Shown: positions 49,661 through 61,748 of the stretch, piece after piece
Layout: each line of letters starts with the position of its first letter
Numbering within the stretch: position 1 is the first letter of the stretch
Source: an uncultured Muribaculaceae bacterium
Lineage (GTDB): Bacteria > Bacillota_I > Bacilli_A > RF39 > UBA660
Reading direction: 5' to 3'
Assembly: GCA_964371705.1 (NCBI GenBank)
Contig: CAYJNH010000001.1
Span: 1-62,100, forward strand
Length of the DNA stretch: 62,100 nt
The notes under the pieces: generated by a model
The model's database searches: none
Told to the model about the DNA's origin: nothing
What the model saw: the letters and a program-made list of their open reading frames with translations, nothing else
Translations under genes and position numbers: made by a program

Positions 49661-49735
49661 TTGTCATAAATTTGAAAAAAATAATTGATAAAAAAAATAA
49701 AGTATGTTATTATTTTATAGTAGGTGAGGTATAAA

Positions 49736-50347
49736 ATGGGTGTAATAAAAAAAATAATAATAGGTGTGTTAATAACAGTGTTTTTTGCAATAGCCATAAC
49801 TATGTCAATATTGCTATTAAATACAAACAAAGAATTTGGAGTAACTCAGTTTGAAAATTCTTCTTTATTGATAATAGATGGAGAGATATCATCTCCTAAA
49901 TATGAAAAAGGTGATTTAGTAATAACTGAAAAAAAACCTTTAGATAGTATAAATGTTGGAGATGAAGTTTTTATATTTAAAATCAATGACAATGATAAAA
50001 TAAGTATAGAATTAGGTTTTGTAGGAGAAGTATTTGTTGATGAAGATGCAATATCTTTAGAAAATGGAGCAACTTATTCTTCAAAATTTATAGCAGGAAC
50101 AGCAACAGATGTATATAGTGGGCTAGGAACAATAGTGAGTTTATTACAATCTACATGGATATTCTTTTTCTTAATAGTAGTACCATGTTTCTTGATTTTT
50201 ATATACCAAATATATTCATTAATAGTAGAAATTAAATTTGGCGGAGATGAACCATATACAAAATCTGAAAGAAAAGAAAAGTCAGAAAAAAAAGAAAGTA
50301 GACCTAAAAAAAGCAAAACGACAACAACAAGAAGTAGTAGATATTAA
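49736..50347 (+). CDS. SipW-like pseudo-peptidase (S26B fold and topology, catalytic Ser/His absent)
   Basis: It has an N-terminal TM helix, a beta-rich domain, a C-terminal TM helix and a basic tail. GEISSPKYEKGDLVITEKK...VGDEVFIF aligns with GSMEPKYEVGDVLISIEK...KGDAISY of the SipW at 55533. GSMEP, the TH(R/E) His and KGD.N are all missing. Confidence 0.6.
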   Translation: MGVIKKIIIGVLITVFFAIAITMSILLLNTNKEFGVTQFENSSLLIIDGEISSPKYEKGDLVITEKKPLDSINVGDEVFIFKINDNDKISIELGFVGEVFVDEDAISLENGATYSSKFIAGTATDVYSGLGTIVSLLQSTWIFFFLIVVPCFLIFIYQIYSLIVEIKFGGDEPYTKSERKEKSEKKESRPKKSKTTTTRSSRY

Positions 50348-50459: not shown

Positions 50460-52853
50460 ATGAGGTCTAGTGGTAGTACTAATAAAGTGTTAAAAAAAGC
50501 TACTAACATAACATTAGATATATTAATTTTTATATTTGGGATTATATTGCTAGTTTCCTTATATAACGTAGTACAAGTTAAAATACTGGGAAATGACTAT
50601 TCCAGTTTTTTTGGTTATACAATATTTGAAGTCCAAACTGGAAGTATGGAACCGGAAATTAGTGCAGGAGACTGGATAATAGTAAAAGAAAAAAAGAGTT
50701 TTGCTCTTGATGATGTAATAACGTTCCAACAAGATGGTAATTTTATAACTCATAGAATAATAGAAAAGTACAGTGACACCTTTATTACAAAAGGAGACGC
50801 TAACAACTCAGAAGATGATCCAATTAACGCTGATCAAATCGTGGGAGAAGTCGTTAGTGTAATACCGCTATTTGGATTATTTAGGATGACACTGTTTAAT
50901 CCATATATATTAATAGCACTTATAATAACAATATACATATATAATATGAAATCAATAAAAAAAGGAGGTATAATAAAGGTGATAAATAAAGTAAAAGAAT
51001 TTTTCGCAAAATTTGCAAAAGGTAAAGAAAAAAAAGAAACAGAAGACTTTTTCAAAGAAGATAACAAGAAATCATTTGAAAATATACCTTCACAACCAAG
51101 GTTTAGAGACTATGAAGAAAGATTAGAAGATCATACTAAACACAACGTAGACGAAGAAGAGGAAATCAAAGAAGAAAAAATAATAGATGAAGATAAAGAA
51201 GAAGAATTAAGTAAAACAATGTTCTTCAGAATGGTATCAGTTGATGAAGATGAAAATGAAAACAAGGTTGTTGAAGATTTTGAAAATGACCAACAACCTA
51301 TAATAACAGGAGATGAACCATTAGATACATTTGAAACTAAAGAAGAACTTAATGTTTTTGAAACTGAAGATAAAGAAGAAGCAAATGTATTCGAAAGTGA
51401 AATAGACGATGATTTTGAAAAAACAGTAAATCAATATGAAGAGCCAAAAAGGGAAACAGATTCATTTATTATCAGCACTGATGATGGAGATTATGAGTAT
51501 GAAAAACCAGAAGAAGAAATAGATGAAGAAATAGAAGTTGAAGAAACAAAAAATGAAATTGAAGTTGAAGAAGAAGTTGAAGAAACAAAAGAAGACAAAG
51601 AAGATGAAGCAAAATTTACTTTAGAAATGATTTTCAATAAACCAGAATATAAAAGAAGCAAGAACATCATAGCTAGAACAATGGCTATTAAAGAAGAAGA
51701 AATAAATAAAACAATAGATTTTATATTTGGTGAAAGTAAAATGCTTGCAAATGAAGCTACGATAAAAAAATCTTTAATCAAATCATATATAGAATCTAAA
51801 TATTACAATATTTTTAGTGAAAAAGTAGCATTACTAGAAACTAAAAAAACAGCTCAAAAGAAACCGAAATATGCAAATTTAAGCAGTATAAGTTTAATTA
51901 GTGAAAAAAATGGATTTGATAGAGCATACGCTACAAGAGTAAAAAAAGTAATAAACAGAGTGTCATATGCTCTTGAAGAAGATAGTGCTAAACTAGCAAG
52001 TATGTATTCAGGTAATGATAAAACTTACGAAGAAAAACTAGTAAAATATTCAAGTTTAATATTGCTTATTTCTAAATTAGAATACTTAGTTGATTTAGAT
52101 ATAAACATGAGAAGTAAAAAGATATTATATACAAAAGAAATTATTAAATTTATAAGTGATTATAATATAGAAAACGATAATATAGAGTACACTGTTAAGG
52201 AAATCATACATTCTCAAAAGCATTTTAGAAGTGCTTCAAAATATTTCTTGGATAGACTTAATACTGAAATGTTTGAATTAATATACCATCCGTTTAAAAC
52301 GGATAAAGCTAAATTTTTATTAGATTTAAAACATAATATAAGTTTCTCGCAAGTTTATAGTGATAGAGTAGTAGATAAAGCATATCAAGAAGGAATAGTT
52401 GCAGAAGATAAATTAAATGTATTATTAACTCTTCTTCAAGCAAGATTGTCACACGATATGCTAACTAGTGAGTTTGTTAATGAATATGTAGTATTGCTTC
52501 CAGATTCATTATGTTTAAAAGATACAAAATTTGAAAGATTATTTAAACAAAATAATGAAGAATACGCTAAGAAAAATATAGTATATTTAATAAGTTATGA
52601 TATTTTTATGAAAAAAGCTGCTAGCATTAAAAATCTAAGGAAAAATGGATTTAGAATAGCAATGTATATTAATGATGATACAAAGTTTGCTAGTAAAAAT
52701 AAAACAGGAATAGCATTAGCAGAATACATATTCATAGATAAACAAACAAAAAAAATAATAGAGTTAGAAAAATTGGTTTTTGACAATTTTAAAAACAAAA
52801 TAATAAAAGACGATATTGATAATAAATTAGAAATTAAGAAGGAGGAAAGATAA
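50460..52853 (+). CDS. SipW-type (archaeal/ER-type, S26B) signal peptidase I fused to a cytoplasmic extension of about 620 aa
   Basis: Residues 1 to about 165 carry a TM helix, QTGSMEPEISAGDWIIV, ITHRII, TKGDANNSEDDP and a second TM helix. An acidic low-complexity linker follows (IEVEETKNEIEVEEEVEETKEDKEDE), then an uncharacterised domain of about 400 aa. Confidence 0.8.
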   Translation: MRSSGSTNKVLKKATNITLDILIFIFGIILLVSLYNVVQVKILGNDYSSFFGYTIFEVQTGSMEPEISAGDWIIVKEKKSFALDDVITFQQDGNFITHRIIEKYSDTFITKGDANNSEDDPINADQIVGEVVSVIPLFGLFRMTLFNPYILIALIITIYIYNMKSIKKGGIIKVINKVKEFFAKFAKGKEKKETEDFFKEDNKKSFENIPSQPRFRDYEERLEDHTKHNVDEEEEIKEEKIIDEDKEEELSKTMFFRMVSVDEDENENKVVEDFENDQQPIITGDEPLDTFETKEELNVFETEDKEEANVFESEIDDDFEKTVNQYEEPKRETDSFIISTDDGDYEYEKPEEEIDEEIEVEETKNEIEVEEEVEETKEDKEDEAKFTLEMIFNKPEYKRSKNIIARTMAIKEEEINKTIDFIFGESKMLANEATIKKSLIKSYIESKYYNIFSEKVALLETKKTAQKKPKYANLSSISLISEKNGFDRAYATRVKKVINRVSYALEEDSAKLASMYSGNDKTYEEKLVKYSSLILLISKLEYLVDLDINMRSKKILYTKEIIKFISDYNIENDNIEYTVKEIIHSQKHFRSASKYFLDRLNTEMFELIYHPFKTDKAKFLLDLKHNISFSQVYSDRVVDKAYQEGIVAEDKLNVLLTLLQARLSHDMLTSEFVNEYVVLLPDSLCLKDTKFERLFKQNNEEYAKKNIVYLISYDIFMKKAASIKNLRKNGFRIAMYINDDTKFASKNKTGIALAEYIFIDKQTKKIIELEKLVFDNFKNKIIKDDIDNKLEIKKEER

Positions 52854-54364
52854 TGGATACAGTTTTAAGATTTTTATACGAATTTTTTGATAATTTTGTG
52901 TCAGGACTACAATCTATTTGGGAAGGTATAGTAGGGATATTTAATTTTGGAAATTATGTCAAAATAATTAATAATTATAGCAAAGAGTTCGAAGGACCGG
53001 AATGGCTATTCATTTTAATAGCTGTAGCATTAATCCTAATTATTCTTGGTTTAATAGGATTTGTAATATTTATTTATGTAAAAAGATTTATAAGAAATAA
53101 AACACACAAAGTAAGTAATGAATCTCTTTTAGAAGAGGTAGATAAACTAAATAATCAAGTTAGAAAACTAATGAAAGAAAATGCTGAATTGATGGCAATG
53201 AAAGTATCTCAATTAGGATTAAATCCGGATGATGAAGATGGTGTCAACCCAGAAGAAGAAGTAGATGAAGAAACTAAAGAAAATGCACATAGGTTCCCTA
53301 AACTTGAACTTATAGATGAAGAGTTTAAGGATTATACAGTTCAAAATTATAATAACAATTTTACATTAGAAGAATTAACAGATAATTTAAGAGCATTTTC
53401 TGCAAGTACATTAAAGCTTTATTATGATTATTCTTTATTAAGAACATTTATTGCTGGTTTAGCATCAAGTAGATTGATAATACTACAAGGTATATCAGGA
53501 ACAGGAAAAACATCATTAGCATACGCTTGGGGTAAATTTGTAGCAAATGATTCAGTAGTAGCATCTGTTCAACCTTCATGGAAAGATAAAACAGAATTTT
53601 TAGGTTACTTCAATGAATTTACTAAAAAATTCACAGAAACGGAAGCGTTAGGAGAAATTTATGCAGCTAGTTTTGATGATAATGTACATACGATAATACT
53701 AGATGAAATGAATATAGCAAGAGTAGAGTATTACTTTGCAGAAATGTTATCAGTTCTTGAAATACCAGCAAGAAGCGAGTGGGTAATAGAATTAGTAACA
53801 AGTGGGTGGCCACATGATGCAGCAAAACTTGACAATGGTAAATTGTTATTACCAGGTAACTTATGGTATATAGGAACAATCAATAACGATGATTCTACAT
53901 ACATGGTAACAGATAAAGTTTATGATAGAGCAGTTCCAATAGATATAAATAAAAAAATCAAACCATTTGATTCTCGTAAACAAGATGCAGTTCCAATAAA
54001 TGCAACATATTTAGAAGGATTATTTGCTGAAGCAATAGAAAAAAATCCTGTTTCTAAAGATGGATTAGATAAATTAGCTTTGATTGATGATTATGTTATT
54101 AAACATTTTAGAATAGCTTTTGGTAATCGTATTATGAAACAATTGACAACATTTGCTCCAGTATATGTAGCATGTGGTGGTCAAGAAATTGAAGCGATTG
54201 ATTACTTTATTGCAAGAAAAATATTAAGAAAATTTGAACAATTAAATATTGCGTTTATACGTGATGAGTTAGATCCATTTATCTCATTTTTAAATAAAGA
54301 ATGTGGTAAAGGAGTTATGAAAGAGTGTATTGAGTTTATAGAGTATATTAAAAAATCAATATAG
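52853..54364 (+). CDS. membrane-anchored McrB-family AAA+ NTPase
   Basis: One TM helix (WLFILIAVALILIILGLIGFVIFIYV, with a KRFIRNK-positive cytoplasmic side) is followed by a coiled coil. McrB-type motifs then appear in order: LQGISGTGKTS, IILDEMNIARVEYYFAEMLSVLE, NLWYIGTINNDDSTY and DKVYDRAVPIDI. The start overlaps the upstream stop by 1 nt. Confidence 0.75.
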   Translation: MDTVLRFLYEFFDNFVSGLQSIWEGIVGIFNFGNYVKIINNYSKEFEGPEWLFILIAVALILIILGLIGFVIFIYVKRFIRNKTHKVSNESLLEEVDKLNNQVRKLMKENAELMAMKVSQLGLNPDDEDGVNPEEEVDEETKENAHRFPKLELIDEEFKDYTVQNYNNNFTLEELTDNLRAFSASTLKLYYDYSLLRTFIAGLASSRLIILQGISGTGKTSLAYAWGKFVANDSVVASVQPSWKDKTEFLGYFNEFTKKFTETEALGEIYAASFDDNVHTIILDEMNIARVEYYFAEMLSVLEIPARSEWVIELVTSGWPHDAAKLDNGKLLLPGNLWYIGTINNDDSTYMVTDKVYDRAVPIDINKKIKPFDSRKQDAVPINATYLEGLFAEAIEKNPVSKDGLDKLALIDDYVIKHFRIAFGNRIMKQLTTFAPVYVACGGQEIEAIDYFIARKILRKFEQLNIAFIRDELDPFISFLNKECGKGVMKECIEFIEYIKKSI

Positions 54365-54385
54365 ATTAAGAAGGGAAAAAAGAGT

Positions 54386-55525
54386 ATGGCAGACTTATTA
54401 AACAAGGATATAAATAGCGAAACTAAAAAGAAAAACAAAGCATTTTTCGATAAAATAACATCAGATATGAGTTATAAAGCAAAAATGAATGGCGATGCTA
54501 TAAATTTTGATTGGATAGATATTGTTGAACAGTCTTGTCCATATCTAGATAATGTTGTAAGAAATCCTAAATTGATACTAGTAAATGAAGCTGAAGTTGA
54601 GTTAATAGAAAAAGCGAAAAAAATTACAGTAGAAAGTATTAAAGATTTAGCAGTGCACAACTATTATATAGATGATGTAACAAAAAATGGAGATGTAAGG
54701 CCTTCTAAAATACTAAATATCAAAAGTGAAGAGACATACAATATTTATGAAAATAGATTTTTATATACAGTAATTTATTTTCTAAATAGATTTCTTCAAA
54801 AAAAAGAAAAAGAGTTGGATGAACTATTAATTGATAGAACTCGTAAGTTAGAATACATTGGTACAACTAGAGTTGCTAATGAAGAAGTAAAAATGCAAGT
54901 TCTACTTAAAGCAACAGACGTATCAAAGCCTGATTTAAACAAAGATTTATTAGATGAAATCGCTAGTATTAGAAAAAGAATGAACAGGGTTAAAGATTAT
55001 ATTTCTTCTTGGTACAGAAGTGAGTTATTTAAACAATTAGAAAAAGCTAGAGTTAAATTAGTTAATCCCCCAATTAAAAAAACAAATATTATACTAAAAA
55101 ACCCAAATTTCAAAATGGCAGTTGAATTATGGAATTTTTTATACAATTATGTGGAAAACGAAGGAAGCAAAAGAAAAGGATTGGATTCTGATGGATCAGA
55201 ATTATTAATGGGACTTTTAGATCATGCCTTTTTAGTAGATTTTTATGTTCTTGAAAGTGTATGTAAAACAAAAAAAGAACAAAAAGAAAAATTAAATCAC
55301 TACGCATTATCTTTAATAAATGATGAAATCAGAAGATTATTAGATTTACTTAAAAAGTGTGGTTTTAAAATAACAGATGATGAAATTCTTGAATTAATTG
55401 CAAACAATTTAGGTAATGATAATCATAATATGGAAGATAAATCAAAAATAGCAAATCAAGATATTAAAAATAAATTTAAAAGTGCGATGGATGATTACTT
55501 AGAAAGGGTACAAGAATACTTGTAA
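54386..55525 (+). CDS. McrC-N-terminal-like partner protein without a recognisable PD-(D/E)xK nuclease motif
   Basis: SEETYNIYENRFLYTVIYFL resembles the NEDT.ANRIIK segment of McrC and DUF2357-type proteins. It sits directly downstream of the McrB-like gene. The remainder is helical and charged, and I could find no D...(D/E)xK signature. Confidence 0.45.
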   Translation: MADLLNKDINSETKKKNKAFFDKITSDMSYKAKMNGDAINFDWIDIVEQSCPYLDNVVRNPKLILVNEAEVELIEKAKKITVESIKDLAVHNYYIDDVTKNGDVRPSKILNIKSEETYNIYENRFLYTVIYFLNRFLQKKEKELDELLIDRTRKLEYIGTTRVANEEVKMQVLLKATDVSKPDLNKDLLDEIASIRKRMNRVKDYISSWYRSELFKQLEKARVKLVNPPIKKTNIILKNPNFKMAVELWNFLYNYVENEGSKRKGLDSDGSELLMGLLDHAFLVDFYVLESVCKTKKEQKEKLNHYALSLINDEIRRLLDLLKKCGFKITDDEILELIANNLGNDNHNMEDKSKIANQDIKNKFKSAMDDYLERVQEYL

Positions 55526-56119: not shown

Positions 56120-57346
56120 ATGAAAATAATGTCAATAAGCAAATTAAAAGTAATGGTATTAATATTTGCAGTTCTTGCATTTGTGTCCGTTACATATGCA
56201 TGGTTTACTTATACTACTGAAGTTGGAACAAAATTAAATGTTGATGTTATGGCTTGGAATGTAGAATTTACAGATGAATCAACATCAGTAACAAATAGTA
56301 TAGTAATAACATCTGCAGAAATTTTTCCTGGCATGGATACAATAACAGAGTATATAGAAATAAATAACTATGGAGATGCTGATGCAAAACTAACTACTTT
56401 TGTTGAGTCAGCAAGAATATTTGATCAAGATTTATATTTAGTTGATCCAGTTAGAACAAGTGAACAATTAGAAGATGCTCTAGCACATGATTATCCATTT
56501 CATATTGATATTGTATTAAGTGATAATTATTTGAAACATCAAACAGGAAAAAGTGTTTTTGAAGTATCGATTTCATGGCCTCTTGATACAGATAATGATA
56601 AAGAAGATAGTAAATGGGGTTTAGATGCATACAATTTTGCAGTAAGTGAAAACGATAAACTTTTATTAGATTCATCATATGAAATTAGAAATCCTATAGA
56701 GGTTGTAATATCTGTAACTGCAGAGCAACAGATTGAAACTTCAGATATAGCCTCTGATAAAGATTATAGATTAGGTGATACAATTTTATTTGATGTAATA
56801 ACAAATAAATCTTGTACTACAATAAGTTCAAGTTGTTTAAAAACTAATGTAATAGATATAGATAATAAATATTCAGATTCAACAGTAACGCTACTTCCTG
56901 ATATAAAATCGACTTATGCTACTAGTACTTTTACAGGGTATAATGCAATTTTAGCTAATACAGTGGCCACTTGGTCAGTAAATACAAGAGCACTAGAAAC
57001 AGATGATTTACTTAATATAATTTCAAAAGATATAGTAACAAGTTATATTGAAAGAGAAAATTTTTCAGATATAATTATTGGATCAACGAATTATGAAAAT
57101 AGAGCAGATAAAAAAATAAATAGTACAATAGCTTATGGAGGTAATTTTACATTTTTAAATGATAAATTTAATTTCTTATATACAGCTAACTGTGTTTGGT
57201 CAAATACACAGTATGGTGTAGATAGTTCATTTGCATTAAAAGATATAGATGCAACAAGAAGTCAATTATATTCGTTAAGCAACACAGAATACTGTAAAGT
57301 AGTTCCAGTAATAATAGCAGACAAAACAGCATTAAGCACTATATAA
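56120..57346 (+). CDS. TasA/camelysin-like secreted protein with SipW-cognate signal peptide (408 aa)
   Basis: The signal ends in ...FVSVTYAWFTYTTEV (compare TasA ...GTWAAFND). EYIEINNYGDADA is an N.G strand motif. Last gene of the plus-strand operon. Confidence 0.6.
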   Translation: MKIMSISKLKVMVLIFAVLAFVSVTYAWFTYTTEVGTKLNVDVMAWNVEFTDESTSVTNSIVITSAEIFPGMDTITEYIEINNYGDADAKLTTFVESARIFDQDLYLVDPVRTSEQLEDALAHDYPFHIDIVLSDNYLKHQTGKSVFEVSISWPLDTDNDKEDSKWGLDAYNFAVSENDKLLLDSSYEIRNPIEVVISVTAEQQIETSDIASDKDYRLGDTILFDVITNKSCTTISSSCLKTNVIDIDNKYSDSTVTLLPDIKSTYATSTFTGYNAILANTVATWSVNTRALETDDLLNIISKDIVTSYIERENFSDIIIGSTNYENRADKKINSTIAYGGNFTFLNDKFNFLYTANCVWSNTQYGVDSSFALKDIDATRSQLYSLSNTEYCKVVPVIIADKTALSTI

Positions 57347-57386: not shown

Positions 57387-58010
57387 TTAAATTACCTGTT
57401 CAAATTTTAAATTAGCATTTATAGTAATAACTAAATCTTCTAGTGAAGCTTGATGTCCAACAGTAGTATCTACTTCATCAGTCATAGTGTTAGTATCTCC
57501 ATCATACCATTCAAAGTAAACTCTAATAACAAATTTTTCATGCTTATAATTTTCTATACCCTTATTAAATATCATTGTGTTTTCTATTACTCCACCAGTT
57601 ATAGAAACTCCATTAAGTGGATTACTAGTAGAAGCTCCGTTTTCAAGAATTTCGTATTTATTTATTATAAAATCTGGTACTTCAGTGCTTACAGCAGATA
57701 ATTCAATGTTATACCTAAATGATAAATCAACATTAGTTGGGTCAACTTCTATATCAAAGTATCCAGTTGATGTAGGAGCAAGTTTGTTGCTACTTACATT
57801 ATTATTAGTTTCAATAGTAGGAGTAAATTCAATAGTAGAAGTAGAATTTTGAACTATATCCGTTTCATTAACTAGTATTTGCCATCTAGATAATGATACA
57901 TCTACATTACCAGTTGTATCAGCAACATACCGAGAATATGTACTACTTATCATGCTAAGAGTAATTACCATCGATACAAACAAAAATAATAATCTAACTC
58001 GTTTTTTCAT
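57387..58010 (-). CDS. TasA/camelysin-like secreted protein, short form (207 aa)
   Basis: The signal ends in ...MISSTYSRYVADTTGN. All-beta composition. Shared late motif IRVYFEWYDGDTN. Confidence 0.55.
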   Translation of the reverse strand: MKKRVRLLFLFVSMVITLSMISSTYSRYVADTTGNVDVSLSRWQILVNETDIVQNSTSTIEFTPTIETNNNVSSNKLAPTSTGYFDIEVDPTNVDLSFRYNIELSAVSTEVPDFIINKYEILENGASTSNPLNGVSITGGVIENTMIFNKGIENYKHEKFVIRVYFEWYDGDTNTMTDEVDTTVGHQASLEDLVITINANLKFEQVI

Positions 58011-58213: not shown

Positions 58214-58295
58214 AAAGTTGTATTATAGATAAGATGTCAATACAAGTTAGAGAGTAAATATATATCTCTTGTTGATATCAAGGAGATTGATGGAT

Positions 58296-58994
58296 ATGGA
58301 AGAAAGTAAATTTACAATCGATGCGAAAAAAATAAGAAGGGATAAGCAGTTACTAAAAATAGCAAAGCTAGCTATAGTAATAATTATTCTTGCCATTATA
58401 TTTTCGTACTTAGTAATTGGTTTTGTTTATAATAGTGGTAATTTTACCATAACGCTCGATAAGAATTCGTTTTATGAGAAAGGTTTAATCATATATGATG
58501 ATCCTAATTATAAAACATACAGATCAGAGTTGATTGCAGAGTCGATTGATACTTTCGATAATGTAGCAGAGTTATGGTTACCTGCTGACTTAGATTCGCA
58601 TGGGGGCGGTTCTAATAATGGAGATAACTATATATCTTATACATTCTATATCGAAAATACAGGAGAAGCTGCAACTGATTACTATTCTGAAATACTTATT
58701 GATGATGTTATAAAAAATGTTGACGAGGCTGTAAGAATTAAAGTTTACAAGAATGGTGAGTCAATCACTTATGCGAAAGAATCTGCTTCCGGAGATCCTG
58801 AAGAAGGAACAGTGCCTTTTGATTCTGATAAACGAGTAGTATTTGATGAAAACAAGGATTTCAAACCAGGTGATATTACAAAATATACTATTGTAATATG
58901 GCTTGAAGGTTCAGATCCTGAAACAACTAATAATATTATTGGTGGTGAAATTAAATTACACATGGAATTCAATTCAGAAATAGTCGAAAAATAG
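58296..58994 (+). CDS. membrane-anchored short member of the same TasA-like family
   Basis: The TM helix LAIVIIILAIIFSYLVIGFVY lacks the TYAWF cleavage motif. YISYTFYIENTGEAA and ITKYTIVIWLEGSDPE...IKLHMEF match motifs of the 441 and 436 aa proteins. ATG at 58296 (or 58290) follows AAGGAG; the track start at 58269 is unlikely. Confidence 0.55.
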   Translation: MEESKFTIDAKKIRRDKQLLKIAKLAIVIIILAIIFSYLVIGFVYNSGNFTITLDKNSFYEKGLIIYDDPNYKTYRSELIAESIDTFDNVAELWLPADLDSHGGGSNNGDNYISYTFYIENTGEAATDYYSEILIDDVIKNVDEAVRIKVYKNGESITYAKESASGDPEEGTVPFDSDKRVVFDENKDFKPGDITKYTIVIWLEGSDPETTNNIIGGEIKLHMEFNSEIVEK

Positions 58995-61722: not shown

Positions 61723-61748
61723 AAGGGGTAACCTAATGGTTACTCCTT
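61723..61748 (+). terminator. strong hairpin after the second major subunit gene (attenuator, partial terminator or mRNA stabiliser)
   Basis: aaggggtaacc / ggttactcctt is an 11-bp stem with one G.U pair and a TAAT loop. There is no clean T-run afterwards. Confidence 0.4.

Follow-up and report, generated by a model that had tools for sequence, protein, structure and literature searches.

A membrane-anchored McrB-type GTPase and its DUF2357 partner in a SipW signal-peptidase operon of uncultured gut Bacilli

Described relatives and the locus under study

McrBC is the textbook example of a GTP-driven restriction motor. Among the McrB GTPases, an NxD branch carries a strictly conserved NxD motif, with E or a further D as the usual next residue, and DUF2357 is treated as the N-terminal domain of the partner McrC (PMC11090510). 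In 2024, Bell et al. described and named the CoCoPALM class in one computational paragraph and deferred its analysis to a later paper (PMC11090510, section 7). Here we report a locus that very probably belongs to this class and does not encode a restriction enzyme. It lies in a window of 62,100 nucleotides (nt), the whole stretch of DNA that was analysed (contig CAYJNH010000001.1 of assembly GCA_964371705.1), and its centre is a pair of adjacent genes for a 503-residue McrB-like GTPase and a 379-residue DUF2357 protein. We put at about 0.6 the probability that this McrBC-derived CoCoPALM GTPase module has been re-used for work at the cell envelope, a reading that combines the identity of the pair with a role in surface-fibre biogenesis; for that specific role, taken by itself, the odds are even at best. 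The two genes are as follows.

52853..54364, + strand: McrB-like NxD-type AAA+ GTPase, 503 residues, with an N-terminal segment (1–51), a transmembrane (TM) helix (52–76), a coiled coil (about 86–120), an acidic linker and an AAA+ core (about 170–503)
54386..55525, + strand: McrC-like partner, 379 residues, with DUF2357 at residues 54–151 (nt 54545–54838), heptad-like helices at 124–152 and 179–214, and a helical C-terminal half

Like CoCoPALM, the locus combines an NxD(D/E) GTPase signature, a TM and coiled-coil fusion at the N-terminus of the GTPase, a DUF2357 partner with coiled coils, and operonic genes of the signal peptidase family; by a simple heptad score, coiled coils are found in both the McrB and the McrC homologue. 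No feature found here contradicts membership, and the find re-discovers a named class. In the literature searched we found no follow-up paper on CoCoPALM, and the available supplementary files of PMC11090510 gave no mention of CoCoPALM, FtsB, signal peptidase or SipW. Beyond the main text on the class, the new elements here are a set of three SipW paralogues (one an apparently inactive pseudo-peptidase, another fused to a cytoplasmic domain), a 'TYA|WF' signal on the neighbouring candidate substrates, the predicted N-out/C-in topology of the GTPase, core-gene-like conservation in metagenome-assembled genomes (MAGs) of uncultured gut Bacilli, and a wider set of NxD GTPases with one, two or four TM helices beside large surface proteins. 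The initial annotation of the pair, which was made from the sequence and took it for an exaptation of the McrBC engine to a non-DNA task, overlooked both the SipW operon context and the prior description of CoCoPALM.

With McrBC itself (E. coli and Thermococcus; PDB 6HZ4, 6UT6, 7VSR and 6UT3), the pair shares the Walker A and B motifs, the N..D signature, the conserved Arg, and a partner gene with DUF2357 directly downstream. It differs in having a TM helix and coiled coil instead of the DNA-binding domain, an NxD(D/E) signature, a partner with neither a PD-(D/E)xK motif nor similarity to E. coli McrC (EcMcrC), and an envelope-operon context in place of a restriction-modification or defence island. 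The CoCoNuT systems (CnuB/CnuC) likewise contain NxD-branch GTPases, coiled-coil fusions, and McrC homologues that often lack an active nuclease, but HEPN or other nucleases, and also helicases, invariably accompany them, with CnuH in types II and III (PMC11090510). In contrast, the GTPase described here is membrane-anchored, and no HEPN or other nuclease and no CnuH-type helicase was found in any gene of the conserved cluster by Pfam, NCBIfam or locus annotation.

SipW fibre operons, such as tapA-sipW-tasA of B. subtilis and sipW-bsaA of C. perfringens (PMC11580942), also place an endoplasmic reticulum (ER)/archaeal-type signal peptidase gene beside genes for its substrates, with a T-[YWF]-A-x-F-like signal end. 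Unlike these operons, which contain no NTPase, the present cluster includes a GTPase, its partner and three SipW paralogues, and its candidate substrates lack detectable similarity in sequence to TasA, camelysin and BsaA. An analogy of function only can be drawn with PilB, PilT and FlaI, which are cytoplasmic NTPases that form hexamers at the membrane and whose genes accompany those of a dedicated signal peptidase and its substrates. These are unrelated secretion ATPases that are not membrane-anchored themselves, and the peptidase that goes with them is a prepilin peptidase, not a type I signal peptidase.

The McrB-type GTPase, its membrane anchor and its partner

The coordinates first assigned to the two open reading frames are exact, and all the motif strings quoted at that stage are found in the translations, including EETYNIYENRFLYT and VDFYVLESVCK of the partner. 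Since stop codons are frequent at the ~25% G+C of the window and each frame has thousands of homologues, frames of 503 and 379 residues are not the product of chance. An exhaustive search of 1.84 billion representatives returned 8083 GTPase relatives at E ≤ 1e-3 and 712 at E ≤ 1e-30, of which the best 150 were surveyed for motifs and TM helices. The family alignments of the GTPase and of the DUF2357 partner comprise 36 sequences each.

The GTPase carries the complete series of McrB-type motifs. Specifically, Walker A (GISGTGKTS) occupies residues 213–221 (nt 53489–53512), Walker B lies in DEMNIARVEYYFAEMLSVLE with D284/E285, the signature IGTINNDDST spans residues 340–349 (N-N-D-D at nt 53882–53893), and DRAVPIDI contains the conserved Arg, R359. 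GISGTGKT, ILDEMN and DRA (R359) are invariant in the family alignment and align with the motifs of E. coli McrB (EcMcrB), and N344-N-D346-D347 is invariant as well. The signature INNDDST pairs with MNTADRS of EcMcrB, in a gapless alignment of IGTINNDDST with IGLMNTADRS, while DRA pairs with RRR. In the best 150 representatives the signature has the form GT[AI]N-x-D-[DE]-ST (variants include NNDDS, NKDDS, NRDES and NQDES), and the conserved residues are therefore N, a D two positions on, and then an acidic residue.

Matches in the PDB were confined to McrB chains (6HZ4 at E = 0.003 with the single sequence; 2e-5 with the family profile), and hhalign aligned the protein with EcMcrB across the whole GTPase domain with 96.7% probability (E = 3e-10). 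The NCBIfam McrB model matched at 3.6e-4, far below its equivalog cut-off, and Pfam AAA_5 gave no match at the thresholds used. The AlphaFold2 (AF2) model has a predicted local distance difference test score (pLDDT) of 72, with means of ~80–95 over most of residues 370–500 and low-confidence core segments at 240–260 and 288–296. Foldseek placed this model among the MCM, McrB, RavA, dynein and BrxL AAA+ proteins, where McrB chains rank third to fourth and show the highest sequence identity. At the level of sequence, the similarity to McrB is weak but specific, and the 503-residue protein reads as an NxD-branch McrB-type AAA+ NTPase with its Walker A, Walker B, sensor/signature and Arg motifs intact. 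The McrB-only PDB matches, the hhalign probability and the aligned motifs thus sustain the family assignment originally proposed.

No DNA-binding (specificity) domain is present at the N-terminus of the GTPase; residues 1–145 consist of an amphipathic segment, the TM helix, the coiled coil and an acidic linker. Residues 1–30 form an amphipathic helix with a hydrophobic moment of ~0.6, and residues 1–53 carry a net charge of −4. The TM helix at residues 52–76 (nt 53006–53080; Kyte-Doolittle 3.3) is followed by the basic stretch KRFIRNKTHK, and heptad periodicity marks the coiled coil at about residues 86–120 (nt 53108–53212), as called by a simple heptad score and not a dedicated predictor. The AF2 model draws residues 51–120 as one unbroken helix, consistent with the hydropathy, charge and heptad analyses. 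Together with the conservation of the region, these analyses bear out the earlier claim that a TM helix and coiled coil stand in place of the McrB DNA-binding domain. A coiled-coil stalk of ~35 residues links the TM helix to the ring domain.

A mis-called N-terminal extension upstream of the real start, which had been named as a possible source of the TM segment, does not explain it. The start codon is preceded at 7 nt by AAGGAGG, and its ATG shares 1 nt with the stop codon of the upstream SipW-long gene (TAATG). Invariant N-terminal residues in the family alignment include M1, T3, F7, E10, F15, G25, Y35, Y42 and F46, and the TM helix and the basic cluster after it are also conserved. The 120 listed homologues show 100% query coverage at 62–100% identity. 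Because the N-terminus and the TM helix are kept full-length across homologues, the segment is a real part of the protein. Beyond these close homologues, TM helices lie upstream of Walker A in 85 of the 150 closest representatives, in one-, two- and four-helix versions; the remainder, many of them 700–870 residues in length with long N-terminal extensions, may be likened to CoCoNuT.

From the distribution of charges, we predict that the GTPase is anchored by its one TM helix in an N-out/C-in orientation. The positive-inside rule would put the coiled coil and the ring in the cytoplasm, as would the requirement for nucleotide, and leave the N-terminal segment at the outer membrane face. Such an orientation is opposite to that of FtsB and FtsL, with which Bell et al. 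compared the TM and coiled-coil region (PMC11090510). The likeness in architecture raises another explanation, namely that an FtsB/FtsL-like region positions a GTPase switch that controls SipW, cell-wall remodelling or septation and performs no mechanical work on fibre subunits. Matches of the region to FtsB/DivIC/FtsL models, including FtsL, DivIC and FtsL_2, stayed below threshold (E 0.003–0.35), and were mixed with, and no better than, matches to many unrelated bitopic families. Homology to FtsB is thus unproven, the architecture being common to both. The large cytoplasmic domain of SipW-long would offer a possible regulated target, and cell-wall amidase and hydrolase genes are found near some loci; however, the conserved core contains no division genes, and, unlike the coiled coil of the GTPase, which must be cytoplasmic, that of FtsB/FtsL is exposed outside the cell. 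AAA+ rings with an McrC-type plug are, moreover, mechanochemical devices in the known cases. We regard an envelope or division regulator as distinctly unlikely.

The partner matches Pfam DUF2357 (PF09823) at E = 6.5e-8, above the gathering score. The same domain is matched by 36 of the 36 aligned members of its family (best E 3.9e-11), and PF09823 is present in every listed homologue, so the downstream protein does carry the McrC N-terminal domain with which it had been associated. Direct comparison of the partner family with EcMcrC gave nothing (hhalign; hmmsearch --max), and the link to McrC therefore runs through the Pfam DUF2357 match. No PD-(D/E)xK, HNH or HEPN signal was detected in the partner by Pfam, NCBIfam, PADLOC or PDB profile searches. 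The family alignment shows no conserved D...(D/E)xK strand motif, and VDFYVLESVCK, once singled out as the only candidate for such a motif, falls within an AF2-predicted helix. The family profile matched no PDB chain. The AF2 model of the partner (pLDDT 58.5) shows two helices separated by a long beta-hairpin at residues 120–210 and, with low confidence, only helices at 186–378; its Foldseek search gave no match at E ≤ 0.001, the confidence of the model being too low to inform. On sequence grounds, the partner is best read as an McrC homologue that has DUF2357 as its only recognised domain and lacks any detectable nuclease.

The SipW operon and its conservation

The pair is embedded in an operon with SipW-type signal peptidases and secreted proteins, followed by a second transcription unit. 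The other features are listed below.

49724..50347, + strand: pseudo-SipW, 207 residues, with weak TIGR02228 and SipW matches and a TM, beta-domain, TM layout
50460..52853, + strand: SipW-long, 797 residues, with an N-terminal ER/archaeal-type signal peptidase I (50460–50990), a second TM helix, an acidic linker and a C-terminal domain of ~400 residues
55533..56105, + strand: SipW-short, 190 residues, ER/archaeal-type signal peptidase I (TIGR02228 at 2e-25)
56120..57346, + strand: secreted 408-residue protein with the SipW-type signal peptide ..VSVTYA|WF.., found in 77 of 83 loci
57387..58010, − strand: secreted 207-residue protein, convergent with the operon, with the related signal ..SSTYS|RYV.. 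and a size near that of TasA
58269..58994, + strand: signal-anchored 241-residue protein, first gene of the second transcription unit, with an uncertain start codon and a homologue in the distant locus L087
59012..61670, + strand: two tandem paralogues of 441 and 436 residues with 'STYA|WFIG' SipW-type signal peptides
61723..61748, + strand: terminator-like hairpin with an 11-bp stem, which closes the second transcription unit

The order pseudo-SipW, SipW-long, GTPase, DUF2357 partner, SipW-short, 408-residue gene and 207-residue gene (on the minus strand) is essentially invariant across 83 loci, in which missing genes mostly reflect contig ends. In 81 of them the GTPase gene is followed immediately by the partner gene, and the SipW-type genes that flank the pair are kept in 78–80. 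A pseudo-SipW homologue is found upstream in 61 loci, a SipW-short homologue in 80, and the secreted 207-residue protein in 65, many of these copies being truncated. From SipW-long through the 408-residue gene, the gaps are −1, 21, 7 and 14 nt, and the SipW-long and GTPase genes are probably translationally coupled, since their stop and start codons overlap.

These data also bear on the view that the pair works independently of its neighbours and is a degenerate restriction remnant fixed in a surface-protein operon. Such a view draws on the TM-anchored pairs that stand alone or in SipW-free contexts (L086, L085 and L088). It is at odds with the overlap with the SipW-long gene and the close spacing to the downstream genes, with the invariance of all the NTPase motifs, and with a gene order that is kept down to a GTPase identity of 46% (L087). 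Additionally, the GTPase is the most conserved member of the cluster, with a median identity of 60% versus 40–50% for the others. A remnant is, in our judgement, very improbable.

Two of the three SipW-type paralogues appear to be active peptidases and the third inactive, as judged from their catalytic residues. SipW-long (TIGR02228 at 9e-21; family profile against PDB SEC11A/C at 5.8e-7) keeps Ser, His and Asp (SGSME, THR, KGDAN..D), and SipW-short keeps Ser and His, with I or L replacing the first Asp of the KGDAN motif. In the alignment of the three paralogues, the catalytic Ser and His of the 207-residue protein are both replaced (SGSME to DGEISS; THR gone), and for this reason we call it a pseudo-peptidase. 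After its second TM helix, SipW-long continues (nt 50990–52853, residues ~165–797) with a low-complexity acidic linker and then a conserved C-terminal domain, which is predicted to be cytoplasmic. The invariant residues of this domain include F605, F629, Y633, Y642, Y676, K687 and K690. The domain, of ~400 residues, has no family or PDB match, and in about half of the related loci it seems to be encoded by a separate gene. An 'NGFRIAMYINDD...IFIDK' stretch in SipW-long and the EAL and GGDEF genes next to the cluster in L087 prompted the idea of a degenerate EAL domain, of the type linked to cyclic di-GMP (c-di-GMP), in the last ~100 residues; it was rejected, as the hhalign comparison reached a probability of 0.4% (E = 0.14) and none of 8 fragments matched Pfam EAL.

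The secreted proteins share an N-terminal pattern of a basic stretch, a hydrophobic helix, and S-T-Y-A|W-F or T-Y-S|R-Y-V, which resembles the SipW-cognate signal. The family of the 408-residue protein has four invariant Cys (C232, C239, C358 and C392) and many invariant Trp, Pro and Gly. This pattern suggests that disulfides stabilise an extracellular domain, an unusual feature for a Firmicute of the anaerobic gut. The 441- and 436-residue paralogues are 48% identical to each other, rich in G, T, A and D, and encoded at a G+C content of 0.33–0.36 versus ~0.25 for the window. They may be highly expressed and are candidate major fibre or surface subunits. Bact_surface_Ig-like was found in 2 of the 34 members of the 441-residue family. 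Some related genomes contain three or more copies of genes of this type. The hairpin behind the two paralogues is the only strong terminator candidate on the + strand downstream of the cluster; a promoter scan gave fewer matches than shuffled sequence and is uninformative in such AT-rich DNA.

The conservation of the GTPase exceeds that of a housekeeping enzyme. Compared with two loci that have a neighbouring gene for ArgS, the arginyl-tRNA synthetase (L004 and L005), the GTPase is 79–80% identical, the partner 65–68% and ArgS 64–67%. Because it is more conserved than ArgS, the GTPase behaves as a core gene under strong purifying selection and not as a fast-evolving mobile defence gene. Searches of 72,556 plasmids and 50,697 phage records gave no full-length homologue (at least 80% coverage), the only matches being GTPase-domain relatives of at most 39% identity; this absence counts mildly against mobility, the host lineage being under-sampled in both collections. 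The genes that flank the cluster are housekeeping genes and not defence islands. In a GTDB scan with one genome per species, at least 476 genomes contain a relative of the GTPase, and the best 80 of these are gut and digester MAGs labelled Bacilli, Tenericutes, Mollicutes, Candidatus Coprovivens (which is classified in Bacilli incertae sedis), Clostridium sp. CAG:628 or CAG:567, and similar.

This pattern of conservation also bears on a rival reading, a membrane-bound anti-phage defence, in which an McrBC-derived sensor or motor would detect infection (DNA injection or pilus-dependent adsorption) and trigger a non-nuclease effector, for example by disturbing the membrane or export. All the characterised relatives and most of the predicted ones are defence systems (McrBC, CoCoNuT; PMC11090510). 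The strongest library match of the GTPase, and its top match in PADLOC, is the candidate defence protein PDC-M26A (1e-34, residues 92–304), and one distant homologue (L089) stands beside a phage holin gene. However, neither a nuclease nor another known effector was found, and the partner matched neither PDC-M26 nor any other partner model in PADLOC. SipW synteny extends across at least 80 species-level loci with housekeeping flanks, no full-length copy is carried by the plasmids and phages searched, and slower evolution than that of ArgS is the opposite of what typical defence genes show. The odds on a defence system are accordingly poor, in our estimate.

A possible role at the cell envelope

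A non-DNA role of the McrBC engine, as first proposed from the pair alone, is strongly suggested by the conserved operon of SipW genes and secreted proteins. The McrBC structures provide a framework for how the pair could act. Six GTPase subunits would form a ring beneath the membrane on six TM and coiled-coil stalks, and the DUF2357 protein would insert into the pore of the ring and stimulate GTP hydrolysis. Judging from the genomic context, nucleotide-driven asymmetry of the ring may then travel through the stalks to the conserved outer N-terminal segment instead of pulling DNA to a nuclease. This segment would lie on the side of the membrane where the active sites of SipW and the TYA|WF cleavage sites are located. 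Movement of the ring may also reach the cytoplasmic domain of SipW-long, and it would drive or gate the cleavage, release and polymerisation of signal-anchored subunits ("pilus"). The pseudo-SipW could hold a signal-like segment without cleaving it. The whole system would be a vertically inherited housekeeping machine that builds a surface structure in an uncultured lineage of gut Bacilli.

In its most specific form, the proposal is that the GTPase ring and its DUF2357 plug are the dedicated assembly or extrusion engine of a hitherto unseen type of Gram-positive surface fibre, whose subunits are anchored by SipW-type signals and released by the three-paralogue SipW set with its pseudo-peptidase. 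We offer this version tentatively and consider it somewhat unlikely as it stands. If true, pilus biogenesis would have a new route that is driven by GTP, the machine would be the first of McrBC descent to act on protein and not on nucleic acid, and the system would be a core trait of the uncultured gut Bacilli with reduced genomes (formerly 'Tenericutes'); a defence motor would have been turned to building the envelope. The hosts, gut Bacilli that are abundant but uncultured, possess small genomes, and a cluster that they keep better than a tRNA synthetase probably plays a central part in the building of their surface or in attachment. The operon is well delimited, its parts are clear and its natural variants are many, so it offers concrete constructs for biochemistry and cryo-electron microscopy.

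Several observations weigh against a role in fibre biogenesis or against re-use at the envelope. The GTPase is tied to the peptidases and secreted proteins by synteny alone. The 408-, 207-, 441- and 436-residue proteins matched neither TasA, camelysin (Peptidase_M73) or BsaA nor any PDB chain in sequence, Pfam, NCBIfam and PDB profile searches. An identity with TasA, camelysin or BsaA was thus rejected. Among themselves, the families of the secreted proteins are alike only in the signal region. Two window proteins score on TIGR04088 at E 0.067 (the 408-residue protein) and 0.7, below the curated cut-off; in the 441-residue family, 5 of 34 members match this model at E ≤ 0.05, with a best value of 7e-4. 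Given the unmatched secreted proteins and the signal score below cut-off, the words "fibre" and "pilus" are an assumption. To our knowledge, TasA-type fibres of Bacillus need no NTPase. The low-confidence model of the partner (pLDDT 58.5) leaves room for a highly divergent nuclease fold, and the PDC-M26A and sub-threshold FtsB-type matches described above fall on the same side.

Distant relatives show the range of contexts in which such pairs occur. In L087 (485–14295), a 46%-identical homologue with one TM helix is found with two SipW genes, a homologue of the 241-residue protein and a 623-residue DUF2357 partner. The flanks of this locus contain one GGDEF and two EAL genes, and since these surround the cluster they hint at control by c-di-GMP, as in biofilm-matrix systems. 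Other TM-anchored relatives adjoin giant surface proteins (one of >3176 residues; one of >2750 residues with LRR_5 repeats) or stand alone. L085 (4475–11585) has two tandem GTPase-partner pairs beside the >3176-residue protein and no SipW gene; the first partner is a weak DUF2357 match, and the second (669 residues) has no DUF2357 match on record. L086 (2899–6741) has a lone pair without SipW, in which the downstream 663-residue protein is weakly similar to the window partner (tblastn E = 0.003). The GTPase relatives of L085 and L086 carry two or four TM helices. As these two loci lack SipW, membrane-anchored and apparently nuclease-less McrBC-like pairs extend beyond the SipW-linked form. In L089 (3317–8267), which may be a prophage, a 40%-identical homologue stands in a row with a Phage_holin_1 gene and a gene for a DUF859 protein.

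MAGs with the cluster (L004–L007, L018, L019 and others) are often labelled 'uncultured Muribaculaceae bacterium', 'Ignavibacteriales', 'Actinomycetes' or 'Lachnospiraceae'. The cluster is low in G+C and of Bacilli type, and its genes and nearest relatives suggest that such record labels are wrong.

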